In this document: in pieces, positions 43,078-61,134 of the stretch | Position numbering within the stretch: position 1 is the first letter of the stretch | Layout of the letters: every line of letters begins with the position of its first letter | Origin: Candidatus Borrarchaeum weybense | GTDB lineage: Archaea > Asgardarchaeota > Sifarchaeia > Borrarchaeales > Borrarchaeaceae | DNA length: 64,000 bases | NCBI GenBank assembly: GCA_019057385.1 | Contig: JAHQJS010000007.1 | Location: 811,685 to 875,684 of the forward strand | Reading direction: 5' to 3' | Program-made: the position numbers and the translations under genes | Notes under the pieces: model-generated | What the model was told of the DNA's origin: nothing | The model's input: the letters and a program-made list of their open reading frames with translations, nothing else | The model's database searches: none

Positions 43078-43097
43078 TGTTTCACCTCCTTAGTTTT

Positions 43098-43928
43098 TCA
43101 TACTACTATTTGCATTAACTCTACGCTAATATTCTGAATAGAAAAGACTTCAATCAAGACAATAATAGATAAAGCAACCAGAAGGACTGAAAAAACCAAC
43201 ATGAGATAATCTCTACTTCCTAATTGAAGGGTCTCCATCGTAGTTGGATTTTTTGTAGCTCGAAAGCCTCGTGCATCTAGAGAATACGCTAATTGCATAC
43301 TTCTACGTATCGAATGAATAATTAAAGGCGTAAACAATCTTTTGATTGATTTAATACGCCCTATTATACCACTTGTTTCAATTCCCCGAACATTTGCAAC
43401 TGCTGTTAACTTCTTCCATTGTTCAATTGCGAGTGGAATGAAACGAATCGTAATGATTACCATGATTGTTAGCTCATAAGGACAACGTAGTTTTCTAAGT
43501 GCACTCACCATTCTACTGGGTTCTGTGGTAAGGGAAACCAATAATGCCATTGAGACTAATGATAATGTTCTGAATGAAAATGTAATTGAAGCAAGAAGAA
43601 TCTCGGTGTAGATTCCAGAACCACCTATTATCGGAATCACTGCGGGAATTACTTCTATGTACGTTAAACGTTCTTTAGGCGCAATTCTTGAAAATACTGT
43701 TGAAGAAACAAACATAAAAGCAAAAAGTAACGCTATACTTTTAAAAAAGTAACTAACGGTCTTAATAGGTAACTTTGCAAGTAACCAAGCGCAAAGAACG
43801 GCGATAAATGAAAGAAATAGAATAAGTGCATCGTGAATTGTACTTATTAGCATCAAGAAAGACATCGAAGTTATCAACTTAACTCTAGGATCCAAGCTTG
43901 ATGAACTAAAATTTATACTATTCTGCAC
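43098..43928 (-). CDS. ecfT: ECF transporter transmembrane component T
   Basis: LDPRVKL, RFIP, VRG and DARGF motifs. Confidence 0.85.
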   Translation of the reverse strand: MQNSINFSSSSLDPRVKLITSMSFLMLISTIHDALILFLSFIAVLCAWLLAKLPIKTVSYFFKSIALLFAFMFVSSTVFSRIAPKERLTYIEVIPAVIPIIGGSGIYTEILLASITFSFRTLSLVSMALLVSLTTEPSRMVSALRKLRCPYELTIMVIITIRFIPLAIEQWKKLTAVANVRGIETSGIIGRIKSIKRLFTPLIIHSIRRSMQLAYSLDARGFRATKNPTTMETLQLGSRDYLMLVFSVLLVALSIIVLIEVFSIQNISVELMQIVV

Positions 43929-43942
43929 TTATCTCGCCCTTC

Positions 43943-45454
43943 TCAGTTTTCCATTATTGGTAGTTGCACATTTTCTGTCGGAAATTGCCTAGAATTATTT
44001 TGTGCCATGTTTTGGTTAATGTGAGTTTCCATTATTTTCCCATTTTCTAATAAAAGTACTCTATTTGATATTGCACTGAGAAATTCCAAATCATGTGAGA
44101 TTGTAATTAATGTGTGTGTTTCATTCAATTCTTGAGCCAATTTGATGAAATCTTGCTTATGCTTATAGTCTTGTCCAGTTGTAGGCTCATCGAAAATCAA
44201 AATATTCGGTTGTGATACTAATAACGAAGCAATTGCAACCCTTTCTCTTTCCCCATAACTTATTTTAAAAGTACCTTTGTTATCGTAACCCTTAAGATTC
44301 AATAAATCGAGGGTTTCGTTTAAAAGCTTGTTTTTCTCATCCTCACTCAATCTTTGAATCCAAGGCGCGTATAAAATTTCATTTGAAACCTTGGTCGTCA
44401 GAATATTATCGTCTGGGTTTTGAAAGAGCACACCGATTTTCCTTATTGCTTGTTTACGTTTATAACTCCCGATCAGCTTTCCATCAATCATTATAGAGCC
44501 TTGTTTTGGCTTAAGAACGCCTGCTAAGATAAGTGCAAGAGTCGTTTTTCCAGAACCATTCTCACCCATTATTCCCAGGGATTCTCTTTCAAAGATTGAA
44601 AAAGAAATGTCAGTTAAAACGGAGTAATTATTATAGGAGAATGAAAGATTTTCTACTTGCAAGATTTTAGATCCATTAGTAATATTGGATTGTAGTGAGG
44701 GGTATATGGTCGTATTCAAAGGCTGTATTCCATAAGTGTTACAAAATTTTGTGTCTGTTAATATTTGAGGATCATCTGCAACTATTTCTCCACGATTTAG
44801 AACGATAACCCGATCGGTAATTTTACTAACTTCTTTTGTCCTATGCTCTGCAATTATAACAGTGATATTTTGATTTTCGCTGATTTGATCGATTAATGCT
44901 AGTATTTTTCTACCTGTTTTAAGGTCAATATTTGAAGTGGGCTCATCAAAAACCATTATAGCTGGACGAAAAGCAAGCATAGACGCAATACAGACTCTCT
45001 GTTGCTGTCCCATTGATAGTTCTGTCAATGGTTTTTCGGCAAATTTCTCCATTTCTACTGCTTCAAGTGCAAAATAAACCCTTTCTTGTATTTCCTCAGG
45101 AGGCAATCCTAAATTCTGTGGACCAAACGCTACTTCATCTTTAACCTTTAGAGAAAATAGTTGGGCCGATGGATTTTGGAGCACAACACCAACTTTATTT
45201 TTTAAGTGATAGGGAGGTGTTCTTTGGAGATTTTCACGTCCAACAGTTATATTGCCTTTAATTTTTCCTTCGGAATAAGAGTGCGGTATTAATCCGCTTA
45301 TACATAATACTAATGTTGACTTGCCGCATCCGCTGGGTCCAACAATTAGTAAACGCTCACCTTTATTGACTTTCAGATTGAAATCCTTCAAGGCAGGTTT
45401 CTCTGTGTTCGAATAACAATAAGAAAAATTCTCAACATGAATAAGCGGATTCAT
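43943..45454 (-). CDS. ECF transporter duplicated ATPase
   Basis: Two Walker A (GPSGCGKS, GENGSGKT), QNP, DEPT. Confidence 0.9.
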   Translation of the reverse strand: MNPLIHVENFSYCYSNTEKPALKDFNLKVNKGERLLIVGPSGCGKSTLVLCISGLIPHSYSEGKIKGNITVGRENLQRTPPYHLKNKVGVVLQNPSAQLFSLKVKDEVAFGPQNLGLPPEEIQERVYFALEAVEMEKFAEKPLTELSMGQQQRVCIASMLAFRPAIMVFDEPTSNIDLKTGRKILALIDQISENQNITVIIAEHRTKEVSKITDRVIVLNRGEIVADDPQILTDTKFCNTYGIQPLNTTIYPSLQSNITNGSKILQVENLSFSYNNYSVLTDISFSIFERESLGIMGENGSGKTTLALILAGVLKPKQGSIMIDGKLIGSYKRKQAIRKIGVLFQNPDDNILTTKVSNEILYAPWIQRLSEDEKNKLLNETLDLLNLKGYDNKGTFKISYGERERVAIASLLVSQPNILIFDEPTTGQDYKHKQDFIKLAQELNETHTLITISHDLEFLSAISNRVLLLENGKIMETHINQNMAQNNSRQFPTENVQLPIMEN

Positions 45455-45530
45455 TTTAGTAACATCAATCTCCTTTAAGGTAGTTCTTCATCTCCATATA
45501 GACAGATGTCATACACTCCAACCAATAGAT

Positions 45531-45621
45531 GGTACTTTACGTAAGTAAAGAGGTAGGCACTTTAAAGGATCAAAAGGAGAGATAGAATTTGTAAGCATGA
45601 AATTGTAAAAGATACCTACCT
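45531..45621 (-). ncRNA. Candidate sRNA/leader RNA copy A
   Basis: TATA at 45652-45645, 5' AGGUAGGUAUCUUU pairing with AAAGUGCCUACCU, loop with UUCUAUCUCUCCUUUUGAUCC, 3' hairpin CUUUAC/GUAAAG. Confidence 0.55.
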
Positions 45622-45659
45622 AGGGTAGGTTATCCTACCCTAGATATATATAGTTTTCG
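45614..45659 (-). promoter_or_regulatory. BRE/TATA promoter followed by overlapping inverted repeats (candidate operator)
   Basis: Minus strand CGAAAAC-TATATATA then CTAGGGTAGG-ATAA-CCTACCCTAG, overlapping ACCTACC-N3-GGTAGGT. Confidence 0.55.
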
Positions 45660-45903
45660 ATTGTCCGCGCACGTATCCATTAGATGATTTATGTCGAAAA
45701 ATAAACCATTGAATTTATTACAGATTTTACTCCAATTTTGTAGGTACAATTCGATCTGGTTCCATTAAAGAGGATTTCGCCGCGTAAAACGGTCTATTGA
45801 TAGGAATCTTTCCTAGAAATCCCCTTTTTTTCATTATTTTTCAATTTCAAAACGGTTTCGTGCCAATATACAGTGTTTACCCCTCGATAGGTTAAAAAAT
45901 ACT

Positions 45904-47754
45904 TCATTTTCTAGAGATCCTATCTTTGTGAGGGATATACATAGATTTAGCATACTCTCTTGTAAAATCTGGATCAAGCACAAGTTCCAAATAACGAACT
46001 TTTCGGCCAATCTCCTCTGACATTTTCCTAGATTCTTTGGATAGAAGTGCCATCCTTGCACCGGTTCCCGCAGCGTTCCCTACCGATTTAATTATTTCTA
46101 TAGGAAAGTTAGGAATCATCCCGATAGTGATGGCTGCCTCTGGATCTACATAGCACCCAAAAGCGCCAGCAATAAAAACATGCGCAACATCATCAATTTT
46201 AATTCCTTTATTTTTTAATAAAAGTGCGGCTCCGGCATGCATTGCTGCTTTAGCTAGTTGCAATTGTTTTATATCTTCTTGAGAAATAGCGAGGTTTTCT
46301 TCAAGAACTGTTTCATCTTTCCGCAAGAGTATAAATTTAGACTCTCCTTTTTTGTCGACAATCCTTGGAGTGGGAAGAGAAACGTTTATACGCCCTCTGT
46401 GATTTATAATTCCCGCCTTAAACATTTCCGAAAGGGCGTCAATTATTGCTGAACCACAGATACCTCTAGGTTTCGCATCATCTATTGTTTTATAGGTGAC
46501 TTCAAAAGTTACAGGATCGATTTTTAAGCGTTCAATTGCCCCAGTCGATGCACGTATTCCATGCTTGATATACGCACCTTCAAAGGCGGGCCCTGATGCA
46601 CAAGAACACACAAGTATATCATCTTTATTTCCAAGAGCGATTTCTGTATTCGTACCAATATCTAAGGTCAAACATATTTCATCAGATTTGTATATTTCTG
46701 TAGCTAATATTTCAGCGACTTTATCTCCTCCCACAAAGCCCGCTATTATAGGAAGAAGGTGAACATTTCCATAAGAATATATATCAAGTTTCAACTTTTC
46801 TGTGGGAATATCCAGCGAATTTTTCACCACTGGAACATACGGTGCTATCGGTAAATAATCAGAAGGGATACGTAAGAATGTATGATGCATAGCAGTATTT
46901 CCGACCGCACAGATCTCATAAACCTCGTATAATTTCACCTCTGCTTTTTCACAAAGTGACTCTATGAGTTGATTTATTCCTTCAACGATAATATCAGACA
47001 TTAAATTTGGGTTCTTTGTTGCAAAAGTGATTCTTGAAACAACATCTTCTCCATAAGGGATTTGCGGATTCATAATAGAGTCAGCAGCCATCAAACTTCC
47101 ATTATAAAGATTGATCAAATAGGCAGCAATCTTAGTAGTTCCAATATCTAGTGCTACCCCATAATTTTTCTCGAATGTCATCCCACGCTCAATATCAATG
47201 ATCTTTTGGTTATTCCAAATTGTTACGGTCACAACCCAATCTCCATCTCTTAAAACGTGAGGAATCTTTTTGAGAATGTTAAAGTCTATTCCAATATTGT
47301 GTCCAAGAATGTTATGAACTTCATCCATAATTCGCTCTGCATCAGCTCTAAGATCCTGAAGAGCTGGTGGGGTCATCTTCAACACTACTTTCTGAACAAA
47401 CGGATCAAATTCTATAGGAACTTCAATACCTTCAATCTGAAGCCGTTGTTTTCCAGTTCTGCTGTTTATTGGTATTTCTACAGTGACATTTCCTTTTGGA
47501 ACTGTGCAACACGCCAATCTGTATCCTTTTTGAATTTCTAGTTGAGTGAGAATTCTTTTTTCATCATCGGTAATTAGGTTGACAGCATTTTTTTCTGAAT
47601 TTATTATAATCTTACATTTACCACATATTGCGGTTCCTCCACAAATAGCTTGAATATCTATGCCTCCCTTTATTGCGCCTTCCAATATGGTTTCGCCGTT
47701 GGCGATGGTAACCCTTTTTCCATCAGGTTGAAATGTTATTTCACTTTGATTCAT
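45904..47754 (-). CDS. ATP-dependent corrinoid reductive activator (RamA/RACo-like ASKHA protein with N-terminal 2Fe-2S)
   Basis: CGG.A.CGKC...RLAC, DIGTT, DIGTNTE, GPAFEG, GICGS, AGAFG, GNAAG.GA. Confidence 0.88.
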   Translation of the reverse strand: MNQSEITFQPDGKRVTIANGETILEGAIKGGIDIQAICGGTAICGKCKIIINSEKNAVNLITDDEKRILTQLEIQKGYRLACCTVPKGNVTVEIPINSRTGKQRLQIEGIEVPIEFDPFVQKVVLKMTPPALQDLRADAERIMDEVHNILGHNIGIDFNILKKIPHVLRDGDWVVTVTIWNNQKIIDIERGMTFEKNYGVALDIGTTKIAAYLINLYNGSLMAADSIMNPQIPYGEDVVSRITFATKNPNLMSDIIVEGINQLIESLCEKAEVKLYEVYEICAVGNTAMHHTFLRIPSDYLPIAPYVPVVKNSLDIPTEKLKLDIYSYGNVHLLPIIAGFVGGDKVAEILATEIYKSDEICLTLDIGTNTEIALGNKDDILVCSCASGPAFEGAYIKHGIRASTGAIERLKIDPVTFEVTYKTIDDAKPRGICGSAIIDALSEMFKAGIINHRGRINVSLPTPRIVDKKGESKFILLRKDETVLEENLAISQEDIKQLQLAKAAMHAGAALLLKNKGIKIDDVAHVFIAGAFGCYVDPEAAITIGMIPNFPIEIIKSVGNAAGTGARMALLSKESRKMSEEIGRKVRYLELVLDPDFTREYAKSMYIPHKDRISRK

Positions 47755-47780
47755 AGATATATGCTCCGATTATGTATTAT

Positions 47781-48698
47781 TTAGAATATTCTGTAAAGAG
47801 GATGGTTCTTGGTTCTAGTTTTTATACGATCTTCTCGCATTGCATATGCAATTATTGCATCAGTCATTGCGGCTGCAGGAAATATTATCTCTGCATTTTT
47901 TATTGGACCATATAGGATAAAATTGGCTCCTGCATTTTGAAGAATCGTCACACAACCTGTCATACATGTTTTCTTTGCATCCATTCCATATTCCTTTAGG
48001 CGCGTCCATTGCAGAAGTTGTCTGTATGGTGATCCTCCAGCCGGTAGGCCAAACTCTTCTTTAATTAAAGGGATTGCTTTAGCCACTAGGCCAACACCTG
48101 GTATATCGCAAGGTGACCCATCGATTAACGTATTTTTGACCCCTGATCTCTCTGCAATTGTTAAAAGACCTTCCTGACGCGAGGTCCCATTTAGTATTTC
48201 AACTCTTCCTGCTGGCTTGGGACTCGAGAGATTAAAGGAGTAGATTATAGCAGAGTCCACCCCTGCCTCTTTTATAGCCATTAATTCCTCTTCTTTTGTA
48301 AAATAAGCTATGTGATTATAAACAATTCTATCACTTAAACCTACCTCTGCAGAGTGTTGGACGGCCGAAATTTTTACATCCATCTGGGGACTATAAAGCA
48401 ATATAGGAGCATCGGTGAGATTCGCTACAAAATCAATATATTTACAAATGGCTTCAGGGCTTGTACCTACAACATCTATCATTATAGGGTTGCCGGTTTT
48501 TTCCGACAACTCAGATTGTTTTTCTATGAATTCTTCTGCTTTCTGCTTGTCGAATGCCCCTGTTTTTTCGTTTTCAACGATTTTATCGCCGTGATAGAAG
48601 ATTGTTCCAATTAATACAGTAGGGAGTTCTCCTAGCTGTCCGCCCACTTCAACGTTTCCTATACGAAATACTTTCTGTTCATTCTCAAATTTAAACAC
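47781..48698 (-). CDS. mtrH: MtrH-family methyltransferase (corrinoid:pterin), paralog 1
   Basis: MFKFE.EQ, GGQ.GELPTVL.G.IFY, FGLP.G, ILYGPI. Confidence 0.85.
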   Translation of the reverse strand: MFKFENEQKVFRIGNVEVGGQLGELPTVLIGTIFYHGDKIVENEKTGAFDKQKAEEFIEKQSELSEKTGNPIMIDVVGTSPEAICKYIDFVANLTDAPILLYSPQMDVKISAVQHSAEVGLSDRIVYNHIAYFTKEEELMAIKEAGVDSAIIYSFNLSSPKPAGRVEILNGTSRQEGLLTIAERSGVKNTLIDGSPCDIPGVGLVAKAIPLIKEEFGLPAGGSPYRQLLQWTRLKEYGMDAKKTCMTGCVTILQNAGANFILYGPIKNAEIIFPAAAMTDAIIAYAMREDRIKTRTKNHPLYRIF

Positions 48699-48807
48699 GC
48701 TGTTCTACTCCTGAAAGAAGAAATGCTTTCCATTAGGGAGTTAAAGACATATTATCTCCCAATTCATCGTTTTTAAACCTAAGGACCTTGTTGACTTTTA
48801 AAATGAT

Positions 48808-49737
48808 TTAGAAAATCTTGTAAAGTGGGTGTTCTCTAGTTCTCGTTTTAACCTTATGTTTTCGCATTGCATATGCAATTATTGCATCAGTCATTGCAGC
48901 TGCAGGAAATATTATCTCTGCATTTTTTATTGGACCATATAGAATGAAATCGGCACCTGCCCTTTGTAGGACTGTCACAGAACACGCCATACAAATTTTC
49001 TTTGCAAGTTTCCCATATTCCTTTACGCGTGTCCATTCTAGGACAGCATTGCAAGGAGCACCTCCTGCGGGTAGGCCAAATTCCTGTTTAATTAGTGTAG
49101 CCGCTTCGGCTACTAGTCCAACACTTGGCACGTCAAACGTTGCTCCATCTATCAAAGTATTTTCGACCCCTGTTTTCTCAGCAATTTTTAATAGGCTCTG
49201 ATCGTTTGATTCTTTTCCATACAGCATTTCAAGTCTACCTTTAGGCCATGCATTAGATGGATTAAAGGTTAAAAGTAACGCGGATTTAACACCTACCTCT
49301 TTTATTGCTGTTAATTCCTCCTCGTAGGTCTTGTACCAAATAGAATTATAAACAATTCTATTGAGTAAGCCAACTTCTGCAGCGTGTTTGATGCCTTCGA
49401 TTTTTACATCCATAAACGAACTATCTACTAATATAGGAGCATCTGTGAGATTCGCTACAAAATCAATATATTTACAGATAGCTTCAGGACTTGTGCCTAC
49501 AACATCTAGCATTACAGGATTACAAGTTTTTTCCGACAACTCAGATTGTTTTTCTATGAATTCTTCTGCTTTCTGCTTGTCGAATGCCCCTGTTTTTTCG
49601 TTTTCAACGATTTTATCGCCGTGATAGAAGATTGTTCCAATTAATACGGTAGGTAACTCCCCTGGCTGTCCACCCACCTCAACGTCTCCTATATGAAAAA
49701 TTTTCTGTTCATTCTCAAATTTAAACAAATTTATCAC
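48808..49737 (-). CDS. mtrH: MtrH-family methyltransferase, paralog 2
   Basis: As above with VDSS and YNSI pterin-binding residues. Confidence 0.87.
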   Translation of the reverse strand: MINLFKFENEQKIFHIGDVEVGGQPGELPTVLIGTIFYHGDKIVENEKTGAFDKQKAEEFIEKQSELSEKTCNPVMLDVVGTSPEAICKYIDFVANLTDAPILVDSSFMDVKIEGIKHAAEVGLLNRIVYNSIWYKTYEEELTAIKEVGVKSALLLTFNPSNAWPKGRLEMLYGKESNDQSLLKIAEKTGVENTLIDGATFDVPSVGLVAEAATLIKQEFGLPAGGAPCNAVLEWTRVKEYGKLAKKICMACSVTVLQRAGADFILYGPIKNAEIIFPAAAMTDAIIAYAMRKHKVKTRTREHPLYKIF

Positions 49738-50065
49738 TATCCCTTGACGTTTACATATGAGTTCACGTTAGCTTATTAAAGAAAAATATTACTCTACTCT
49801 ATTTTTATAGTTGAATACTATAGATTTATATAAGTTGTCTTTGTAGGAATTCATGATAAATTCGTTAAAAAACCTGGGATATGGAAATTTTTGAAATTAA
49901 AGTTCCGCAGTTCTAAAATGAAAAAAAGGCCATGAACACAGTATTTATAGCTGAAAGTGACAAAAAGTGAGTCTACATTACTTGAATCGTAGTATCTTAA
50001 TTACGTAAGTTTATTAATTGTATATGATCCACAAAAAGTTTATGAATCGTTAATGCAACAACTGC

Positions 50066-50428
50066 ATGATGAGAAAAAACCTTATAAGAGATCTAAAGGT
50101 GGAAGTTATGGAAATTGCCATAGAGTTTTCAGATGAAGAACTCAAATTAGTAAAAAAGTTACTAACGAGTAAAAAAGATAAGCGTCCAACAAAAGAAATT
50201 TTAGAGGAAAAATTTCGTGATTATAAAATAGGTCTGGTTTTTAGTGCACACCACAAACTAAGTGAAATTTGTCCAAAGTGCGGCTCAATTGAGACCACAC
50301 AAGATATGGATTGGAACTCGATTGACGATGGAAATGGAAAAAATATAATATTTTTAAAATGTAAAAATTGCAGTAACAAATTCAGTATTATTTGGAATCC
50401 TTTTGAAACAGATCCCCCCTCATGGTAA
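50066..50428 (+). CDS. Small hypothetical zinc-ribbon protein, paralog 1
   Basis: CPKCGS...CKNC; homologous to next ORF; start may be 50108. Confidence 0.6.
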   Translation: MMRKNLIRDLKVEVMEIAIEFSDEELKLVKKLLTSKKDKRPTKEILEEKFRDYKIGLVFSAHHKLSEICPKCGSIETTQDMDWNSIDDGNGKNIIFLKCKNCSNKFSIIWNPFETDPPSW

Positions 50429-50443
50429 GCAAAGAAACAGTAC

Positions 50444-50824
50444 TTGGTCCTAATGAATAAAAAAATAAATGGAGCACTTGTTATGAATAGTCTAAGGGAA
50501 TCATTGAAAATAAAAGTAATTTTCTCAAAAGAAGAAATCGAAATATTCAAAAACCTATTAGAAGGGAGAAAAGAAATACGCCCTCTAAAAAAGATCTTGG
50601 AAGAGAAAATAACAGAATACCAATTAGGACTAATTTATAATGCAAAAGTAATACTGAATGATGCCTGCCCAAGCTGCGGGTCACTAAACACAAAAGAGGA
50701 TCATAATCGTCCGCCGACACTCACAAAGGGTGGAAATTTTATAATATATCGCCAATGTTGCGAATGTAACACAAAATTCAGTGCACATTTTATACCATCC
50801 TTCGAAGCTGACTATAGTATTTAA
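50444..50824 (+). CDS. Small hypothetical zinc-ribbon protein, paralog 2
   Basis: CPSCGS...CCEC; shared FS.EE...LL...RP.K.ILEEK..Y..GL pattern. Confidence 0.6.
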   Translation: MVLMNKKINGALVMNSLRESLKIKVIFSKEEIEIFKNLLEGRKEIRPLKKILEEKITEYQLGLIYNAKVILNDACPSCGSLNTKEDHNRPPTLTKGGNFIIYRQCCECNTKFSAHFIPSFEADYSI

Positions 50825-51006
50825 GACCTGTCTTTCATTGTTAAACATTTCTAGAATGCGTCTTCACGCAAATCGACTTTGTGAGGTATGTAAAATAGTT
50901 TAGAAAGCAAGATCAAGAAGGAAACTCAATGATCGAGAGGAATTTTTCAATAAGATTTTCTTTAATAAGATAAATACATACTCATATCGAATAGAAGGGA
51001 GATATA

Positions 51007-51981
51007 TTGTTAAAATTTGAAAAGCCACAAGAAATATTTAGAATTGGTAATGTTGAGATCGGAGGGCAACCTGGAGAATTGCCTACCGTATTAGTTGGAA
51101 GCATATTCTATTATAAAGATAGAATTGTTGAGAACCAACATCAAGGTATTTTTAAGAAGAAAGAAGCACTACGAATAATCAATAAGGTAGATACCATATC
51201 CATGAAGACAGGAAATCCCTACGTGATAGATATAGAAGCAATTAGTAATCGTTCAATTGAAAAATTCATAGACTTTGTTTCGGAAGTAACAGAGGCACCC
51301 TTTTTTATAAATAGCACTAATATCCCAGTCAGGCTACATGGTGCCAAGTACGTAAATGAAAAAGGTCTCCAAAATAGGACAATCTACGCTTCTATAAATT
51401 TCAAGGTAGAAAAAAGTGAAATTGAAGTGCTAGAACAATCAAAAATAGATGCTGTACTAGTTCAAGCATTTAACCCTCAAAACCCGTGGTCTAAAGGAAT
51501 GATGAAGATTATGAGAGAGGGACTCAATGGAGAAGGACTTGTAGATATGGTAATAAAGGCAGGAATAAAAAAACCCCTCCTCTTTGCAAACATCTACGAT
51601 GTACCGAGCATTGGTATCGGTGGAGAAACTGTCTACATGTTAAAAAATGAGTTTGGTTTGCCGAGTGGTACAGCTCCGGTGGGTGTAGTCGGTGTATGGG
51701 GGAAAACGAAAGAGGCCAAAGAACTATATGCGCAAATAACCAGTATTTGTGGCGCAAACGCCGCAGTTTTCTCAAAACTCATGGGATCAGATTATATACA
51801 TTACGGTTCTTTGAAAAGAGCCGCAAAAATTTTTCCATCAGTTGCCATGATTGATGCTATAATAGCTTATAATGCAAAGTTATACGGAGTTGAACCAAAG
51901 ATAATAACACCTGCCTTACAAGATTTTTTTGATACTCCTGACAAAACAGTACCTCCGAAATACTTGCACGCTGAAAATTAA
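51007..51981 (+). CDS. mtrH: MtrH-family methyltransferase, divergent paralog 3
   Basis: KFEKPQ, GGQPGELPTVLVGSIFY, FGLPSG. Confidence 0.8.
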   Translation: MLKFEKPQEIFRIGNVEIGGQPGELPTVLVGSIFYYKDRIVENQHQGIFKKKEALRIINKVDTISMKTGNPYVIDIEAISNRSIEKFIDFVSEVTEAPFFINSTNIPVRLHGAKYVNEKGLQNRTIYASINFKVEKSEIEVLEQSKIDAVLVQAFNPQNPWSKGMMKIMREGLNGEGLVDMVIKAGIKKPLLFANIYDVPSIGIGGETVYMLKNEFGLPSGTAPVGVVGVWGKTKEAKELYAQITSICGANAAVFSKLMGSDYIHYGSLKRAAKIFPSVAMIDAIIAYNAKLYGVEPKIITPALQDFFDTPDKTVPPKYLHAEN

Positions 51982-52173
51982 AATAAGAACATATAGGACG
52001 ATATCGAGGGAGAATGTCTATTCAATATGCACGACTTGATACGACATCTATGGTTCATCTTACGAATTGAAAGAGATGATGCGGGAAAGAATTAAGTATA
52101 GTTTATTGAGTAGACATTTTGGATGATGAAAAACCTCTTTTGAGATGAAAAATCTTTTATAATGACGTGTCTT

Positions 52174-53910
52174 TTAGAAGACTGTATATTTTTTCTCGTG
52201 ATCTTTATACTGTGGCAAATGGCTCGCAGACAAAAAGCCAGGCAATTGTCGCCCTATGGCATCGGGGGGGATCTCTTCTTTCTTTTCCTTTTTTAAATTG
52301 AGCATATCGTCAATCCTCAAAATCGATATAGCTGTCTCACACGCTCCTTTGAATATTGCTTTAGTAACTGCCAATGGCATAATGATACCAGCGTTCATCA
52401 TATTATCAATTTTCTTACCTAACGCATTATATCCATACCACATATTGGCAGACTGTTGATGTTCCGCAATGAGGAAAGGTAGAATATCTAATGAATTCAA
52501 CCCTGTATTTGTCACCAACGCTCTTGGAATGCAAAGCAGAGCATCTGCAAAGGCTTTTACAGCAAATTGTTCCTTACCGTGAAATTCTCGTGAAAACTCT
52601 GTCAGTCGTTTTTTCAATTCTACCTCAACAGCCCCGCCGCCAGCAACTATCTTATTACATTTGAAAAGATTTGCTGTAGCGTAAAGAACATCAAGCACTG
52701 TTTTTTCGACATCCTCCATTATTTCTTTCGAAATGCCACGTATTAATATACACACTGATTGCGGGGTTTTGCATCCCTCAATAACAACAATTTTATTATC
52801 ACCAACTTTTCTCTCCTCAACCAAATTGGCTGATCCTAAATCCTCTTCCTTTAAGTCGTCAAGATCTCTAACTATATTTGCATTACAAGCCTTGGCAACC
52901 CTTAGTATAAATTTTTGCTTTGCAGCCCATCGATATAGTGTTACAGCCATAATTCCAGCTCTGGCCAGAAAATATGCCGCCAAATCATCAATACGTTTTT
53001 CACAGAAAACAACGTTTGCACCTGCTGCCTTTATCTTATTTACCCAATCTTTTAAGATCTGTGCCTTCTTATCTATGAAAGGTTTGATTAATTCTGGATT
53101 ATTTATTTCAATCTTTCCCTGAACTGTAGGAGGGTGATGTTCAAGTTTTTCTATCTCTAAAGGATGAGTAAGAACTGCAATCTTCGGATTTTTGACGTGC
53201 TTCGGCATTTGTGGATGAATCAATTGTTCATCCATAACCATTCCGCGTACAAAAATTGAATCGTTAACGGTCTTACCAGGTTTTTTAACGATATGAACCA
53301 GATCAATATTAGCAATCCAGTTGTTGTCTCTTTTTTCCTTGATTCGTTCAATAACATCAAGAACGATATCTGTTAATACTAAACTAGCCTTTGCACCCAG
53401 TTTGGTAGACATGATGGTATAGACTACTTTTTTGAGAATCTTTCTATCAGCAGACTCTATTTCTACTGCAATCTCGTCCAGAATCCTAAGTGCTTTCTTT
53501 AATGCCTCCTTGTATCCATGAATAATAATTGAAGGATGTATCTTATCGTCTAATAGTCTCTCTGCGCGTTCTAGAAACTCGCTTGCTAATACAACGGACG
53601 AAATAGAGCCATCACCCGTTGTATCCTTTTGAGCGGTTGCCAAATGGATCAGAATCTTTGCTACAGGATGCCATATGCTCATTCTTTTAAGTATCGTTGC
53701 CCCATCACAAGAGATAATGAAGTATTTGAGACTATCTACAAGGAACTTCTTCGAACCGCTAGGACCAAGACTTTTCTGTAGAATAGCTCTAATTATCTTT
53801 GCGATCAAAATATTACTCTTTACTAACTCTGAGCCATTTAACTGACTTATACCTTCTCTAATCAGTGGAGAAGTCATTAGTGCAGCATCTATGTTTGACA
53901 TCTCTCTCAC
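52174..53910 (-). CDS. Divergent group II chaperonin (thermosome/CCT-like)
   Basis: LGP.G..K, DGATIL, HPVAK, GDG, IHP..II.GY, GGGAVE, ILRIDD. Confidence 0.88.
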   Translation of the reverse strand: MREMSNIDAALMTSPLIREGISQLNGSELVKSNILIAKIIRAILQKSLGPSGSKKFLVDSLKYFIISCDGATILKRMSIWHPVAKILIHLATAQKDTTGDGSISSVVLASEFLERAERLLDDKIHPSIIIHGYKEALKKALRILDEIAVEIESADRKILKKVVYTIMSTKLGAKASLVLTDIVLDVIERIKEKRDNNWIANIDLVHIVKKPGKTVNDSIFVRGMVMDEQLIHPQMPKHVKNPKIAVLTHPLEIEKLEHHPPTVQGKIEINNPELIKPFIDKKAQILKDWVNKIKAAGANVVFCEKRIDDLAAYFLARAGIMAVTLYRWAAKQKFILRVAKACNANIVRDLDDLKEEDLGSANLVEERKVGDNKIVVIEGCKTPQSVCILIRGISKEIMEDVEKTVLDVLYATANLFKCNKIVAGGGAVEVELKKRLTEFSREFHGKEQFAVKAFADALLCIPRALVTNTGLNSLDILPFLIAEHQQSANMWYGYNALGKKIDNMMNAGIIMPLAVTKAIFKGACETAISILRIDDMLNLKKEKKEEIPPDAIGRQLPGFLSASHLPQYKDHEKKYTVF

Positions 53911-54501
53911 CTATGCTATTCTTACTCGAAACTTAATGATTATCATACCGATCAATGAATCCAGTCCTTTTACTTATATTATTTCAGAAATCACTTTGCT
54001 AATGACTCCATATACCTTTTTGTGCAAAATCACATTTTTGAAAGATTTTAAGAATGTATTTAAGACGTCATTTTACATGTTTGTAAATAATTTACTTGGA
54101 ACTAAGCCATAGATTGCACTTTCCTTTGATTTGCAAATAAAGGACTAACTCACTTTGGCTTTAAGCAAATTTCAAAAAGATTCTATAAATTCACAATATA
54201 TAGAGATACAAGTCTGGGAATGAAACGAGGAGTTATTCTCGAAGAGCTGGAGAGGCAGCATATATATATACTTATGCGTTGGCAAACACCAGAGTTCAAA
54301 ACTGTTTTGATCCTCCCTTTTAATTTTGAGGATATGTACATTCATTGATAGGTTCATTTGAGCAAAGAGCAATCCGAGGTGGTAATTGTCTACTATCAAA
54401 TGTTATAAAGTTTTTTACTCGAACGAATACGCCAATAACTCAAGAGGAATTTTGTAGGGATCGTCTCTTTGCAAGGCTTAGTGTGATTGTACATGCATAT
54501 A

Positions 54502-54948
54502 CTACGATTTACTTTTTTTTCTTCTTTTTTTAAATGAAAGTAAACAATTCTGAAATTCATCAAAAGATTTTTTGGAAATAATGCCGATTAAATTACCATC
54601 GTCATCAACCACACAAAGCCTGTTTATCGTAGTCCTCTCGAATTGGGACGCAATATCAAAGACTCTATCATTTGAGAATACGGAATATATGGACGACACC
54701 ATCACATCTTTTGCTATAAATTCGCAAGGATTCTTGCCTTCCGAGATTAATTTGACAATTACTCCTTCGGTAATAATACCAACAGGCTTGTTCGAGTTTA
54801 TAACAAGAATGCTATCAACCTGATGGCTGATCATTAATTCAGCAACTTTTGTTAAGTTATCTTCCAGATCACATGTAACAATATCTATAACCATATCAAT
54901 CGCTAAGGGAGCGATCTTATTAATTTCTTCACTCATTTTCTTCACCAT
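54502..54948 (-). CDS. CBS domain pair protein
   Basis: VAELM, PVGIITE, AKDVM, VVDDDGNLIGIIS. Confidence 0.85.
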   Translation of the reverse strand: MVKKMSEEINKIAPLAIDMVIDIVTCDLEDNLTKVAELMISHQVDSILVINSNKPVGIITEGVIVKLISEGKNPCEFIAKDVMVSSIYSVFSNDRVFDIASQFERTTINRLCVVDDDGNLIGIISKKSFDEFQNCLLSFKKRRKKSKS

Positions 54949-55064
54949 GTTTTTAGGTTCTTCCTAATCAAATTAGATCCGATTATTTTTTGCTGTGAAT
55001 GCCGGAAAAAGAATTATCAATTCCTTTAAAAAATAAAAAAGGTTGAGGGGAATTGTCAAAGTCG

Positions 55065-56327
55065 CTAGAAGGGCTTTGCAATTCTTTTTATTTCTGCTGT
55101 GCTTTCCGTGGGTTGAAGCGCCTCTAAATCAATTGGAAATGTACCGTATTCTTTTACCTTTCTGATAAGGTATTTGAATCTTTGCATTGTACATGCAGGT
55201 GAAACCGTGTCCAGTTTGACAGGTACAGAGCCTCCTCCTGGTGCTGTATCTCTTATATGTCTTCTTACTCGTTCATCTAAGATCTCCAAGGCAGCATAAT
55301 TGATGGTTTCAGCATCGGTTCCGACAACCCAGAGTTTCTTGTTTTTCGCAGATATTTTTTTTGCAGCAGCTAAGTCAGCTATTCGTGTATCCATCCCATA
55401 CATGAACACAATGAATCCACTATTATCCATGTAATGTTGCCAAAAGTTTTTCCAGTCATCAACAGCTTCGTAAAATCTGAATACGCCCCAGTTGTTATAG
55501 GGTGTTCTCTTTATGACCTTCATAGCAGCTGGCATTGCGAATTCTTCCCAGTTCTTTGTACCGATCAGCGGAACGTCGCATGCGGCAGCCCACATGAAAG
55601 GAAATAGTGTTGGTGCATGGGGCTTTACAACTTCTTCGTATTGAAACTTACCATAGTCGGTCGCTAAATCCACGTATAAGTCTAAGACTTTCCACAAGAA
55701 TTCAGGATCTCTGCGTGCCCATTTAATAAGTCTTGTGAATCCCATAGTCTTAAATGCGATGTCCCAAGGGGTAGCTTGGAAGTAGAAGGGTGTAAGACGA
55801 CCGGGTAAGGTCTCAAATATTGTCTTCATTATACCAGCAAAAAATGGTCCTCTGCCCTCTGTACTTAAGTCGGGTACTCTTAATTTGTCAAAATCTGCCT
55901 TCTCTTTGATTATTTCTCCATCTGGTGCTACACAGGGGTACGACGTTGTTGGACGGAGGAGTTTGCACCCTAGTACTTCAGGCTCGATGTTGTATACATC
56001 AAAGTCAGCCTGTGGAAACTCATGTTCCAGCTTGTCTACAACCCAATATTGACTCGCCACGAGTTTTTTATAGCTATAGCAGCACTCAAGTAAAGGAATT
56101 TTTGAGTGGTGTGAGGCAAACGTTTCCATAAGCCCAGTAGGCCCAGGTATTCGCCATTTAGGTTCTTTATAGGTTGCAAGTCTTGCTATGGCTTCAGCAG
56201 GTGTCTCAGGATATTTATCAATTCTAGCCTTGATTTTTTCTGTGTGTTCTTGGATTCTCTTTTCCATTTCTGGCTCTGTCTTTTCCTCGTATACTTTCTC
56301 ACCAAATATAGTTTCTCCAAAACCCAT
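55065..56327 (-). CDS. Uroporphyrinogen decarboxylase-family methyltransferase (divergent MtaA/CmuA-like)
   Basis: YNIEPEVLGC, DPE, EEFAMP, APGGG, VKEYG; co-transcribed with corrinoid protein. Confidence 0.7.
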   Translation of the reverse strand: MGFGETIFGEKVYEEKTEPEMEKRIQEHTEKIKARIDKYPETPAEAIARLATYKEPKWRIPGPTGLMETFASHHSKIPLLECCYSYKKLVASQYWVVDKLEHEFPQADFDVYNIEPEVLGCKLLRPTTSYPCVAPDGEIIKEKADFDKLRVPDLSTEGRGPFFAGIMKTIFETLPGRLTPFYFQATPWDIAFKTMGFTRLIKWARRDPEFLWKVLDLYVDLATDYGKFQYEEVVKPHAPTLFPFMWAAACDVPLIGTKNWEEFAMPAAMKVIKRTPYNNWGVFRFYEAVDDWKNFWQHYMDNSGFIVFMYGMDTRIADLAAAKKISAKNKKLWVVGTDAETINYAALEILDERVRRHIRDTAPGGGSVPVKLDTVSPACTMQRFKYLIRKVKEYGTFPIDLEALQPTESTAEIKRIAKPF

Positions 56328-56343
56328 TTTTTATACACCTCTA

Positions 56344-56985
56344 TTAAACTGCTCCTATTAGTCTTTTACACTCGCGTACAGCATCAGCTGCATCTCTGCC
56401 GAATCCGTCCGCATTGTATTGAATTAACATATCACGATATGCGCCAGCACCACCGATTATATATTTTACTTTGTCCCTAACACCAGCCTCAGTAAGTGCC
56501 TTCTCAATTGCTGGAAGCTCTATATCAGCTGTTGATGTAGAATAGGCGGAAGCCCCAATTAACTCTGGGTTGTATTTCTTTATTGCCTCAACGAATTTTT
56601 CAGGATAGACATCTGAGCCCAAATCAATGACTTTAAATCCAGCACCTCTCAGAAATGCACCAACAAGGTTTTTTCCGATGTCATGAACATCTCCTCTAAC
56701 AACTCCAAGAACTATCGTCGCAATAAAATCTGCGTTACCACTTTTTTCCAATTCAGGAAGGACAATATTCAGGGATTTTTTCGCAGCTTCACCAACCATC
56801 ATTAGATCAGCAATGAAGTACTCTTTTTGCTCAAGTCTTTTCCCTGCAACTGTCAAGCCATTTTTCATCGCATCGATGACTTCCATTGGCTTTGCACCTT
56901 CATTAACCGCACGTTTTGTCAGCGCTTCTGCATCGTCATCTTCGCCCTCAAGAATAGCGTTTTCTAAGTCCTTTAAAGTAGACAT
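56344..56985 (-). CDS. Methyltransferase cognate corrinoid protein (MtaC/MttC-like)
   Basis: Cap domain (EYFIADL) + GDVHDIGKNLV B12 motif, GASA, IIGGA. Confidence 0.9.
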   Translation of the reverse strand: MSTLKDLENAILEGEDDDAEALTKRAVNEGAKPMEVIDAMKNGLTVAGKRLEQKEYFIADLMMVGEAAKKSLNIVLPELEKSGNADFIATIVLGVVRGDVHDIGKNLVGAFLRGAGFKVIDLGSDVYPEKFVEAIKKYNPELIGASAYSTSTADIELPAIEKALTEAGVRDKVKYIIGGAGAYRDMLIQYNADGFGRDAADAVRECKRLIGAV

Positions 56986-57632
56986 TTTTTCTATCTCTCC
57001 TAGTTTTGATCCATTTTACATATTTTTTGGATGAACCTCTATTTTCAAGAAGTCCATTTAAGTTATAGCGAATTATTATTATAGTTTTACTATAAAAAGT
57101 TTATTACTTAATAATAATTTTTTTGTATTTATGATATAATTTATTATAATTATGAATATGCTTTTTTCAAATAACAATTTAATACATCCAATCCTGGTGT
57201 TTCCTTTTTACGAAAAAATCGTACTATGAAGTCGGTATTCTACATCGGATCGATATTCATTCGGGCGAGCCCTTCAGGGTATTTTAATAAAGAATAATTT
57301 TCTTACAATTAGTTTATAAGCTCCGCGTAGTGTAAAAATATAAGAATGCCAATATTAACGGAAAGAAGTCACAGGTTACATTCTGCATGTGAAACTGGCA
57401 TAACAAGAAGGATCCTTTGTCAGTTGCATATTTTATTTGAGCTCCTGCAAATCAACCAATTTCACTCTTTAAAGGATTAATGGAATCGTGAATTCAAACA
57501 TTTTAAAAATGTACTTACCTTAATACTTATAAATATGGATTAGATTTTTATTATAATTAGTTTGTATTTCCCTAATATAATATTTGAAAACGAGATTATG
57601 TAGCGGAAACTATTATTCGCATTATCTATAGA

Positions 57633-58778
57633 GTGATTGCAATGGACGTATCGATACTCAAAATTAAGGAAGACCTTTTAGAAAAGGTAAAACTAGCAGT
57701 AATTGATGGCAACGATATTATAATCGGTAAATATATATTAAACGTATTGAATTCGAACATTCCAAATCCATTTGACTCTATTATGACCGTTCTTATTGAA
57801 GGCATTAAAAGAGTTGCAGATATGTACGAAACAGGAGAATGTGAGCTGCCAGATTTGATACTAGCGGGGGAATCACTCAAAGAAGCACTTAGTATTATAA
57901 CAAATAACGTGCGCGACCCCTCTAGTTTTTTACAAATAAAAAAAGGAAAAGTTATCCTAGGAACTGTAGAAGGTGACACTCATGATATCGGCAAAAATGT
58001 CGTTGCAGCCATGCTTCAAGCTAATGGTTTTGAAGTTATAGATCTCGGACAGAACGTACCACCTCAGATATTCGTCGAAAAGGCAGTAGAAGAAAAGGCG
58101 AATATTATAGGGGCCTCTTCATTTATGTCAAGCACTAGAAATTCTCAAAAAAAGATTTTAGAAGAATTAGAAAAGGTGGGACTTAGAGATAAAATTATTT
58201 TTCTCATCGGTGGGGCTGCGGTCTCAAAAGATTATGCCAAAACGATTGGTGCAGATGGATATGCGAAAGACGCTTTTGAGACAGTTGAACTGCTTGAGGG
58301 CTTGGTTAATAACCAAAAGAAAATTACACCAGAAAAAAATCACAAATTATTACTTAAAATGGAAGAAAACAGAAAAATGATTGAACAATTAGCTGATCAA
58401 GTCAAACAGTTTCAAGATATTATTGGGAAGACAACTAGTAGAGAAGTGAATGTTGATAAAAGTCGCCTTTTAATTTCGCAGAAGTTCATAAATGTCAAAA
58501 ATATAACGTTTTCAGAAGAAAAGGTTTACAAAATATTATCAAGTTTGTCCAACAAAGTTCGCTTAAGGGTTCTTATGGCTCTATGGCAAAAACCTTTACA
58601 TTTTTCCGAAATCGAAGAAGTCATATCAGTTAAAGGCGGTCATCTTCAATTTCACGTGGGAAAATTAAAAAACGAAGGATTAATTGAACAAAAGAAGAAC
58701 CGAGGAAAATACTCAGTTACTCAAAAAGGCAAAAAAGTAATAATGATAACAAGTCAATTATCATCGCTTGAGAATTAA
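57633..58778 (+). CDS. Corrinoid-binding protein fused to C-terminal ArsR-type winged HTH (putative regulator)
   Basis: GDTHDIGKNVV, IGGAAV, GADGYA then LSNKVRLRVL...FSEI...GGHLQFHVGKL..GLI...Y.VT.KG. Confidence 0.82.
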   Translation: MIAMDVSILKIKEDLLEKVKLAVIDGNDIIIGKYILNVLNSNIPNPFDSIMTVLIEGIKRVADMYETGECELPDLILAGESLKEALSIITNNVRDPSSFLQIKKGKVILGTVEGDTHDIGKNVVAAMLQANGFEVIDLGQNVPPQIFVEKAVEEKANIIGASSFMSSTRNSQKKILEELEKVGLRDKIIFLIGGAAVSKDYAKTIGADGYAKDAFETVELLEGLVNNQKKITPEKNHKLLLKMEENRKMIEQLADQVKQFQDIIGKTTSREVNVDKSRLLISQKFINVKNITFSEEKVYKILSSLSNKVRLRVLMALWQKPLHFSEIEEVISVKGGHLQFHVGKLKNEGLIEQKKNRGKYSVTQKGKKVIMITSQLSSLEN

Positions 58779-58809
58779 CACACACTTAGAATATTCTTGG
58801 CAAGAGTAA

Positions 58810-59097
58810 GTGACATCCTCCCCAGCCGTTCGGCTGGGGCTTACAGCTTTCCATCGTGGTCTCGTTCCCTCACGGGAAGCGATGTTTCGCCTACTTCTAT
58901 GGGCTTACGGAAACTTACCAGGTTGCACACGCTGCTCAATCACTATCCTGCCCCTTATTCAGGGGAATTTCTTGCGATGCTGGATAGCGACCTCATGCAC
59001 GGGCTTCCTCACGCTTACCCCTGTCACTACGCTGACTGGTCGCTTATGGGAGGATATGCCTCCACCCCAGTCGGAAGGGGACTTCCCACCGCATAAG
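58810..59097 (-). mobile_element. ~290 bp ORF-less IS200/IS605 derivative made of structured RNA (stand-alone omega-RNA-like)
   Basis: GC-rich island; right end AAGCCCCAGCCGAACGGCTGGGGAGGATGTCAC; multiple stems with GNRA loops on minus strand. Confidence 0.7.
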
Positions 59098-59631
59098 TTA
59101 AAAAGTAAATCGCCAAAAAAAATCAAATCGAGTTTCGTGTGGGCTTATTTTATTAATCATCTAATTAGTTCCAGCGTCTATTAGGCAATTTACAATGTGG
59201 CTGAATGATAGGATATAGACCCCTTCTACCTGGGCAGTTTTCGCTGAAGGAGGTATCTACTCGCCTTTAGACTGTGACAGTTCAAAAAGAAATAATATGT
59301 GCGTAAGGATAGTTGAGTGATATCTAAACTAAAGACCTCTAAAATCAAAAACATGCATTTACTCATTTCTTAAACAGTTTAAACGAAGCAAGATTGCCTT
59401 GATAGAGAAAATTCTCCAGATACCCTTGGAAGCGATACGAAGATGATCGCATAGTGAATATAGAGAATTTTGCTGGTTTCAACGAGAGATAAAAATTATT
59501 CAAAAAAATTGAAGTTTTTAAAGCAAAATGTGATGAATCGTGATTATATCAATGCCAGCTTTGACCTTTGGCTGGAAATGAACATATCTCCTGATAACAG
59601 AGCAAAGGGGCAAAAAATTGCTTATGATTCA

Positions 59632-60315
59632 TCAAATATTATATTCGCAGTGTTGGGTAAGAGATTCACCGCTAAAAGATTTCTTTCGGTATTCACAAGT
59701 TCTTGGACAATATTGGCAGGCAAAGTATTCTTCTGGTGTGGCCGCGAAAATGCCTGAAAGTGATTTTCTAGGTATCATTAAAAAACTGGGCGTAAGATGA
59801 ACCCCTATAGTCCCAGTCGGATTCAAAATCTGAAAAATAACCTCTTGTTGCTTGATATCAAAGAGTTTACCTGTTCCAGATCCCGGAGTAAAGTTGGATA
59901 TTGTGCTTCCCAATTTTTCTTTCATTAAAGATCTGACGTAGGCAGCTGCTTTCTCTACTGCGTAATCTGCTATACACTCCATGATAAATCCTCGAAGTAT
60001 GCTACTTTTAGTTTCTTCTGAAGCTTTTTTTTCCAGTCCTGGTCCAATTGTAACTATATAGGGAACTACTGTTTGATTAACTTTTAATACTTCACCAAGG
60101 ATCGAACTCTTTAGAATGTATTCGCTTTCTAATTGGATTTCATCCTTCTTAATACTAGTCACTTTTAATAAGGTGTATACTGTCGTAGGTTCAATCAATC
60201 GACGGCAGTCCTCTATAAGCGGTACTACTTTCGTCTCCTTCATTCTTCTGTTTTTTAGAGTTCGTATTAAGTCCCTAGCATCTAAATCAATAGGTATGAA
60301 ATCAATTACTTCCAC
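59632..60315 (-). CDS. Methionine synthase activation-domain-like protein with C-terminal CxxC..C..R, copy 1
   Basis: VTIG..LE, PG.G, Q..IF..L, IGV.LTPS.LM.P.KS.SGI, CQYCPR.C..R. Confidence 0.78.
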   Translation of the reverse strand: MEVIDFIPIDLDARDLIRTLKNRRMKETKVVPLIEDCRRLIEPTTVYTLLKVTSIKKDEIQLESEYILKSSILGEVLKVNQTVVPYIVTIGPGLEKKASEETKSSILRGFIMECIADYAVEKAAAYVRSLMKEKLGSTISNFTPGSGTGKLFDIKQQEVIFQILNPTGTIGVHLTPSFLMIPRKSLSGIFAATPEEYFACQYCPRTCEYRKKSFSGESLTQHCEYNI

Positions 60316-60639
60316 GAAAACGCCTCCTTAATTAAAGCAATTGTGAGTTTGTGGCGGAAGTTCTGTATCCCTGGAAGTAATATAAGAATATCGGGTCTAA
60401 ATAAAAGGAGTCCGTTTTCAATACCCGATAAAACTTTATAACAATGTCACATCCTTTTGCAAGAGACTTGAGGGACACCATACTCACTTTGTCGATAGTC
60501 TCTAGCGCATTATCCAATAGGCTTCTCAAATTAGTAAGATTTGCTTTCTTCTCTTCTAATTGCAACGAGAAGAATTTCTGAGAATTCATCCACAGACTCA
60601 AGCTCGTGGCTTTCTTGAGGTGTCTCATAAGAAAAAATA

Positions 60640-60734
60640 GGTACTTATTTTGAATAATGAAGGTAGGCACACCCAGGATCATGTAAAGGAGAGATAGACT
60701 TTATCAAAATCCATTGGAGGGATATGCCTACCTT
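60640..60734 (-). ncRNA. Candidate sRNA/leader RNA copy B
   Basis: TTTTATAC box 60763-60756; 15-bp stem AAGGUAGGCAUAUCC/GGGUGUGCCUACCUU with G-U pairs; loop contains UCUAUCUCUCCUUUACAUGAUCC. Confidence 0.55.
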
Positions 60735-61134
60735 AGGTGCGACCACTTCATTGCTGTATAAAAGTCTTATTGTACAACATTCAGCAATCAAATCCTTCTG
60801 AAATAAGTTACAATTTAGTATGTTTTCTGCGTCGAAGTCGAAGCGAGGGGCATCGATAATAAATTTGAAGATTATAAAAGAGAGATATAGAACAAAATGG
60901 GTGATACTAGAGGATAAAAAAGACAATAAAAATCAACATATTGCAAAAACTTACGTTTTAAGATTTCGTTCATATTCATTCGATTTGTAGTTTACTCAGG
61001 AAAATTTTATATCCATAAACCTTAATATTACATCTCTACAAATTTTTTATTAATGTACTAGAAGTTTTATATAAGTCTGAAAAACTTGTGATATTTGAAG
61101 AGCACAATTATTAGAAATATTATCTCACAAGAAG

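Follow-up and report, generated by a model that had tools for sequence, protein, structure and literature searches.

The question raised by the stretch of DNA analyzed here, a window of 64,000 nucleotides (nt) of Candidatus Borrarchaeum weybense (assembly GCA_019057385.1, contig JAHQJS010000007.1, positions 811,685 to 875,684), is how the synthesis of a corrinoid protein might be matched to the supply of its B12 cofactor. Little is known of how archaea tune cobamide-dependent enzymes to the available cobamide, because B12 riboswitches of the bacterial type are not detected here. Three loci in the window, which we call A, B and C, carry a short block complementary to the ribosome-binding site of a corrinoid-protein gene. 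Our favored reading, in which we place about even confidence, is that A, B and C give rise to base-pairing RNAs that mask this ribosome-binding site. The source organism is an Asgard archaeon, not a methanogen, and its lineage is isolated: the family contains a single genus, and the class a single additional genome; the sister genome used throughout, Candidatus Borrarchaeum yapensis, belongs to the same genus, and the nearest protein homologues come from metagenome-assembled genomes named Promethearchaeota and Sifarchaeia.

The block is defined by an exact 11-mer, GGAGAGATAGA, which occurs in the window on the + strand at 33757-33767 (C), 45576-45586 (A) and 60688-60698 (B) and on the - strand at 56990-57000. 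In each copy a GGATC block stands 4-9 nt from the 11-mer, and the spans including it are 33743-33767, 45567-45586, 60676-60698 and 56990-57012. Across the whole assembly (4.18 Mb in 8 contigs, 37% G+C) these four copies of the 11-mer are the only ones, all of them inside 27 kb of the window, and six sites with at most one mismatch were seen against a mean of 1.0 in window shuffles. The open reading frame map and Pfam assignments place all three + strand copies upstream of minus-strand B12-related genes, so that the transcribed strand reads UCUAUCUCUCC...GAUCC and the corrinoid leader is its complement; the fourth copy lies in the sense orientation and is the Shine-Dalgarno sequence of the corrinoid-protein gene. 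Predicted TATA boxes end 22-23 nt upstream of an AGGT common to A, B and C. A preliminary description of this DNA had placed the motif loci within one base of the coordinates given here, had judged the motif too rare for chance, had put the distance from TATA box to AGGT at 22-24 nt and had noted that all copies lie beside cobamide or methyl-transfer genes, and our analysis bears out each of these points, the motif not being abundant genome-wide. Its description of the loci as intergenic does not hold, since A, B and C all lie within the 5' regions of minus-strand genes and none is free-standing. The + strand copies were also considered as ribosome-binding sites of tiny + strand open reading frames and rejected, because C alone has an ATG directly after the motif (7 codons), B has none, and conservation is lacking throughout. 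A further exact TCTATCTCTCC was found in the sister genome at C78:52047 (-, stretch L018), in AT-rich intergenic DNA about 750 nt upstream of that genome's regulator gene; it has neither GATCC nor a stem and may be a chance occurrence.

At A and B the minus strand carries an RNA structure with covariation. Homologues were gathered from the sister genome, from a pattern scan of metagenome contigs, and from contigs holding orthologues of the corrinoid protein or of the ECF ATPase, which yielded 12 sequences, nine A-type and three B-type; fetched contigs or lineages are identified by L-numbers (L038, L042, L051/L052, L063, L066 and L072), and L002, L006 and L018 are stretches of the sister genome. 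In both A and B a stem, P1, of the form AGGUAGG.../...CCUACCU includes G-U pairs at several positions that become A-C mismatches on the opposite strand. When the 12 sequences were aligned to the covariance model, 96.8% of the cells of P1 were paired, compared with 36-48% in slid controls in which the partner was shifted by 1-3 columns, and five of the seven distal pairs had changed on both sides; RNAalifold predicted the same stem from homologue alignments. The gene strand folds better than its complement, by energy and by comparison with shuffles, in A and B of this genome and in B of the sister genome, and in the sister genome's A it is favored weakly and by z-score alone. Fold z-scores were -3.9 for A and -5.1 for B, and +0.5 for C, which has no stable fold and no stem. 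The six proximal pairs of P1 are invariant and lie directly against the predicted start, which would make P1 the first element of the RNA. The covariance model built on A and B (R1) scores them at 91.9 and 95.9 bits, does not recognize C, and picks up no further copies in this genome; when it was run on 151 genomes of the phylum, its matches were confined to this genome and the sister genome, at two syntenic copies per genome.

These results agree with the stem that the preliminary description had drawn at A and B, and in which G-U pairs are found only on the minus strand. Of the small hairpin and AAGUACC that it had placed after the stem, the hairpin is not conserved in relatives, whereas the motif is, in the form AG(U/C)RCC kept 14-15 nt after P1. 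As it had also supposed, the A and B RNAs do not belong to any curated RNA family: Rfam returned no match at the gathering score in the window, and at E up to 10 for the two loci it gave only sub-threshold chance matches, such as those to C/D-box and miRNA models, which scored well under the cut-offs. Neither a tRNA nor a tmRNA was found. As small protein genes A and B were rejected, the ATG frame in A being absent from relatives and the 93-amino-acid frame over B being interrupted, in the sister genome, by an indel of 1 nt.

The loops closed by P1 would connect these RNAs to the corrinoid leader. Both partners are present in four lineages (this genome, the sister genome, L042 and L072), whose corrinoid proteins are only 67-71% identical, and in each of these loop and leader can form duplexes of 18-28 base pairs (bp) at -29 to -36 kcal/mol, with z of -5 to -8 relative to shuffled loops, and these run from GGAUC across the Shine-Dalgarno sequence GGAGAG up to 4 nt before the AUG. 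The complementarity between orthologous RNAs and orthologous leaders, on which the preliminary description had made its case depend, is thus preserved in all four, and its pairing counts for A (21 bp with a 3-nt bulge) and B (12+6 bp) were reproduced; C reaches 23 bp via wobbles and bulges. The spacer between the two blocks is 4 nt in A here, 7 nt in B, 9 nt in C and 12-13 nt in other A-types, which have a second CUCC block; because indels in the spacer become bulges, RNA pairing tolerates all of these lengths. Among seven close A-type lineages the complementary blocks are invariant and the 5' half of the loop varies, and A-types and B-types have little in common beyond the base of P1 and the complementary blocks. 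In the target, the leader block GGAUC-AAAACUA-GGAGAGAUAGA ends 4 nt before the AUG at 56985, and in relatives GGAUC-AAAACAA-GGAGAGAUAGA stands just before the AUG. A stretch of about 30 nt containing it is almost invariant in eight contigs with orthologues 66-71% identical to the corrinoid protein and in L072, which was reached via its transporter gene; only the leaders of L051/L052 have one changed base and read GGAGAGAUAUA, and no such block precedes the orthologues of 50-59% identity. At its predicted 5' end the corrinoid mRNA has a hairpin (GGACUUCU...AGAGGUUC, 57033-57055, -) that shows pairing-preserving changes among orthologous leaders.

The setting of the three copies bears on what kind of RNA each may be. 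A has no U-tract and continues into an ECF transporter and cobamide-salvage operon, which makes it a leader, and all nine homologous A-type leaders lie upstream of orthologous ECF ATPases; the 200-amino-acid protein of this operon could, by its position, be the S (substrate-binding) component of the ECF transporter. C lies in the leader, about 170 nt long, of a phosphoglycerate-mutase-like gene that runs divergently from cbiB; the orthologue of C is near-identical in the sister genome and partly decayed in L038, where a 4-nt insertion interrupts the 11-mer and GAUCC is lost. A and C are thus 5' leaders of operons and not stand-alone small RNA (sRNA) genes. B has orthologues in the sister genome and L042, which share the sequence AATAAGACTTTTATA around its TATA box, and a U-tract follows it in all three lineages. 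The DUF1638 gene downstream is intact in the sister genome (215 amino acids), where it has a separate predicted TATA box, and in L042 (204 amino acids), and B is intact here despite the truncation of this gene. The U-tracts in three lineages, the separate TATA box and the survival of B beyond the truncation make B the best candidate for a discrete small RNA, and it may be a separate RNA of about 100 nt ending at the U-tract. Of the redundant trans-acting sRNAs, or 5' leaders, that the preliminary description had proposed, the leaders stand for A and C and the stand-alone sRNAs do not, leaving B as a candidate sRNA. In this genome a deletion removed the 5' part of the DUF1638 gene and about 200 nt of leader, putting B beside the remnant. 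Coordinates of all these features are collected in the table.

Table. Features of loci A, B and C and of the corrinoid operon, in window positions; starts and TATA boxes are predicted.
Feature	Position	Strand	Details
RNA copy A	45527..45624	-	P1 5' arm 45621-45608, 3' arm 45563-45551; loop about 45 nt
Antisense block of copy A, UCUAUCUCUCC-UUUU-GAUCC	45586-45567	-	inside P1 loop
Conserved AGUACC of copy A	45536-45531	-	
Promoter of A	45618..45652	-	TATA run 45652-45644; palindrome 45641-45618; predicted start ~45621
Genes downstream of A	41317..45454	-	Pfam; same order in L038/L072
ECF double ATPase	43943-45454	-	Pfam
CbiQ	43098-43928	-	Pfam
200-amino-acid protein	42475-43077	-	no Pfam match; between CbiQ and aminotransferase, order kept in L038/L072
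CobD-like aminotransferase	41317-42426	-	Pfam
RNA copy B	60632..60736	-	P1 5' arm 60734-60720, 3' arm 60674-60660
Block of copy B, UCUAUCUCUCC-N7-GAUCC	60698-60676	-	in P1 loop
AGUACC of copy B	60645-60640	-	followed by U6 tract, 60637-60632
TATA box of B, TTTTATAC	60756..60763	-	23 nt upstream of AGGT
Genes downstream of B	59632..60628	-	DUF1638 remnant and MetH-activation-domain-like gene
DUF1638 remnant, 98 amino acids	60332-60628	-	matches only the C-terminal end of the 215-amino-acid protein intact in the sister genome (L002:1802-2449)
Gene like MetH activation domain	59632-60315	-	
Copy C, start of leader	33743..33784	-	unstructured; UCUAUCUCUCC-N9-GAUCC at 33767-33743
Promoter of C	33814-33805	-	TATA box; predicted start ~33784
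Corrinoid-protein mRNA leader	56986..57055	-	5' hairpin, then GGAUC-AAAACUA-GGAGAGAUAGA (57012-56990)
Proposed regulated operon	55065..56985	-	Pfam B12-binding, B12-binding_2, URO-D
Corrinoid protein, 213 amino acids	56344-56985	-	
UroD-family methyltransferase	55065-56327	-	

The mechanism we propose would begin at three paralogous promoters (TATA, about 22 nt, AGGU), each driving an RNA with the block in its first 40-100 nt. This block, a pyrimidine-rich UCUAUCUCUCC(UU) followed by a spacer and (UUUU)GAUCC, would be presented in A and B inside the loop closed by a 5'-terminal P1 of 13-15 bp, and would pair with the corrinoid mRNA leader from GGAUC through GGAGAG. Such a duplex would block binding of the small ribosomal subunit and lower the amount of corrinoid protein made, and synthesis of the co-transcribed methyltransferase would probably be lowered too, so that expression of B12-acquisition genes would hold back synthesis of an apoprotein that requires B12. 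The sequences show the motif and its uniqueness, the covarying P1 and the conserved complementarity; we infer transcription, pairing in vivo, repression as the sign of the effect and the physiological logic. As related lineages keep the match, the leaders probably tie corrinoid-protein synthesis to B12 supply; from gene context only, we infer a coupling of B12 supply to methylotrophy, as the preliminary description had done.

Several observations weigh against this mechanism. Genome-wide duplex scanning was seeded with a core of 27-31 nt; scans of a 47-nt loop against 65-nt targets were too noisy, AU/GU-rich duplexes dominating them. The corrinoid leader emerged as the best non-self site for A and the third non-self site for B, and it is not an energy outlier for A (-30.9 against -30.3 for the next site) and is not among the top 14 sites for C; the suggestion that this leader would rank as a top target holds for A, by a small margin. 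GGAGAGA is a common Shine-Dalgarno sequence in this genome, found at 50 candidate starts, so the core alone is not specific and specificity rests on the extension. No compensatory covariation between RNA and target was found in the four lineages holding both partners, where the paired blocks are invariant and hence uninformative. The spacer of this genome's leader has changed from the CAA of relatives to CUA, which weakens pairing, and B and C have not been matched to it; B of L042 and C of L038 likewise carry duplex-weakening changes, with their targets unchanged. In two diverged A-type leaders, L063 and L066, P1 is kept, the distal sequence is almost entirely different and the block is lost, from which it follows that the stem has a function independent of the corrinoid target. 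The promoters and RNA ends used here, finally, are predictions made solely from sequence. No orthologous corrinoid gene is present on the contigs L063 and L066, the corrinoid gene on L063 being 39% identical; their leaders (L063:9827-9922 and L066:619-716) keep promoter, palindrome and P1, and their loops contain the pyrimidine-rich sequences CCCUCC and CUCUCC/CUCUCU.

The same pairing could also act in the reverse direction, or mutually, with an abundant corrinoid mRNA leader acting on the three B12-related leaders, for example by opening or cleaving them, so that cofactor demand adjusts uptake and salvage. The complementarity is symmetric evidence in this respect, and the status of A and C as mRNA leaders instead of dedicated sRNAs fits this reversal, as do the own conserved 5' hairpin of the corrinoid leader and a conserved block longer than the part it shares with the others. 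We nevertheless regard it as unlikely, since the paired block of A, B and C stands 100-170 nt from their own start codons, without overlap, whereas in the corrinoid leader it covers the Shine-Dalgarno sequence, where pairing has an obvious consequence.

We consider it similarly unlikely that the elements work in cis only, with P1 and its pyrimidine-rich loop governing how stable or how well translated their own operon mRNAs are, perhaps as cobamide sensors, in which case the match to the corrinoid leader would reflect Shine-Dalgarno sequences in common. Like bacterial cobalamin riboswitches, all three copies do stand in the 5' leaders of B12-related genes, and the retention of P1 in L063 and L066 despite the changed block would be expected of a cis element. 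A stretch of about 70 nt after B, conserved between the sister genome and L042 (L002:1565-1640 and L042:16490-16565, -) and deleted in the window's genome, points the same way, as it holds a repeat of the 5' arm of P1, AAGGCAU(A/G)UC, which could pair with the 3' arm as an alternative helix. However, A-type loops pair with their own start sites no better than shuffles do (z -0.2 to -2.3), and the complementarity reaches beyond the Shine-Dalgarno sequence to AUAGA and GGAUC(AAAA), which are missing at those start sites. Rfam's cobalamin riboswitch models, like its other riboswitch models, matched nothing in the window at the gathering score and nothing at the two loci even with E raised to 10, and the loop has no conserved internal helices and is strongly diverged in L063 and L066, unlike an aptamer. 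The persistence of B here beyond the truncation of its downstream gene is a further point against control in cis.

A third possibility is that the motif is a double-stranded DNA site for a transcription factor, with four promoters forming one regulon and strand being irrelevant. The four sites are identical as DNA, and a gene at 57633-58778 (+), divergent from the adjoining corrinoid gene, encodes B12-binding_2 and B12-binding domains fused to a C-terminal winged helix (DUF7347/ArsR-like); similar genes occur near the system in the sister genome (a 388-amino-acid frame) and in L042 (14607-15758). Its product is a candidate cobamide-sensing transcription factor. The promoter of A contains in addition a perfect palindrome, CTAGGGTAGG-ATAA-CCTACCCTAG (45641-45618), between the TATA box and the predicted start, with the consensus CTAGGnTAGG-ATAA-CCTAnCCTAG in nine lineages, including those with a diverged RNA loop. 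This genome and the sister genome each contain it once, and from 185,579 species genomes scanned a single record was listed, that of the sister genome, records of the window's own genome possibly having been omitted. The palindrome was considered as an RNA hairpin and rejected, the one variable position per half-site being compensated in just four of the nine lineages; this weak compensation fits a protein-bound DNA operator better. It looks like the operator of a dimeric regulator, for which the B12-binding winged-helix protein is an obvious candidate binder. The 11-mer motif does not look like such an operator: it lacks symmetry, the distance between its two blocks ranges from 4 to 13 bp among copies, and at all four loci its place is about 17 to 75 nt past the predicted start, away from the TATA box and the start itself. 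Around it in A and B is a stem whose G-U pairs fit RNA only, and in every lineage the orientation of the motif is antisense in A, B and C and sense in the target. A role for the motif as a DNA site is for these reasons quite improbable in our view. That A, B and C are non-functional relics of an inverted duplication, or of a small mobile element through which part of the corrinoid leader came to be duplicated in three other leaders, is consistent with their restriction to one genus among the 151 genomes and with the resemblance of P1 to terminal inverted repeats, and yet it is very hard to credit when each genome has just two copies of P1, syntenic in several lineages, and not the many dispersed copies of a miniature inverted-repeat element, when the blocks are invariant while loop flanks and neighboring proteins diverge, and when P1 pairing is maintained through double changes and G-U pairs.

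Masking of the corrinoid ribosome-binding site by A, B and C can be set beside several known systems. Qrr and OmrA/B are sets of sibling, free-standing, Hfq-dependent bacterial sRNAs in which one seed is shared and the same target site is bound; here too several paralogous RNAs have one common seed, but they form part of the leaders of archaeal operons that are related in function. SreA/SreB of Listeria are terminated riboswitch transcripts with a known ligand that pair with another mRNA, and they resemble the reading proposed here in using the 5' part of an mRNA leader as a base-pairing regulator in trans; in contrast to them, no aptamer is recognizable here, and premature termination is plausible only for B, which has the U-tract. 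For sRNA41 of Methanosarcina mazei, anti-Shine-Dalgarno-like loops reportedly bind the ribosome-binding sites of operon mRNAs; that system differs in organism, sequence and target set (acetyl-CoA decarbonylase/synthase genes). Cobalamin riboswitches (Rfam clan RF00174 and variants) occupy the same place before cobamide transport and salvage genes and likewise involve a pyrimidine-rich element and the Shine-Dalgarno sequence, whereas the elements described here have no conserved multi-helix core, a loop unconserved in diverged homologues, and cis pairing not above chance. The mechanism proposed here resembles that of sRNA162 of Methanosarcina mazei, which base-pairs with an mRNA through a single-stranded region, masks the ribosome-binding site, and is linked to the control of methyltransferase and corrinoid metabolism (PMC3510493). 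Masking of the ribosome-binding site by pairing is the shared feature, but sRNA162 is a single, experimentally shown RNA, as against three paralogues, two of them operon leaders, in an Asgard archaeon and known from sequence alone; the pairing block here lies in a stem-closed loop, and there is no sequence or structural similarity of sRNA162 to A, B or C and no Rfam match here. The Asgard host and the embedding in leaders of cofactor-supply operons add interest to the masking of a ribosome-binding site, a mechanism of a known kind.

DNA of this locus is present in metagenomes of marine, estuarine and marsh sediments. Three metatranscriptome runs contain part of the corrinoid operon stretch (query 55100-57050), and no RNA run was listed as containing the 4.8-kb query stretch. 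In three further incomplete genomes of the genus the RNAs, the orthologous corrinoid gene and the ECF ATPase were not found, and as these genomes are only 69-77% complete, their lack there is not evidence of absence. The contig of the sister genome has a mosaic relationship to this genome: across the copy C region 1 base in about 280 is different (L006 against window 33600-33880), and identity is 93% for the ECF ATPase, 74% for the A leader and 71% for the corrinoid protein (L019, L060). This suggests either recombination between lineages or a chimeric assembly, the bin being rated 11% contaminated.

A more far-reaching version of our proposal is control of one messenger by another, in which the leaders of operons for uptake and salvage of cobamide would have a second role as antisense regulators of a cobamide-dependent methyltransferase mRNA, and transcription of the cofactor genes would directly set translation of the apoprotein. 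We advance this only tentatively and regard it as doubtful. If true, this would be the first regulatory RNA circuit of Asgard archaea whose target is defined; our literature search yielded no regulatory RNA with a defined mRNA target in these archaea, and none is known to have been described. It would also be an RNA-based functional counterpart of the bacterial B12 riboswitch. RNAs of about 100 nt and a 23-nt target over the ribosome-binding site form a testable pair, short enough to be studied without culture of the organism. Confirmation of the pairing would mean that operon leaders can serve as sibling antisense regulators in archaea, and would add a post-transcriptional layer to the methyl-transfer metabolism of sediment Asgard lineages.

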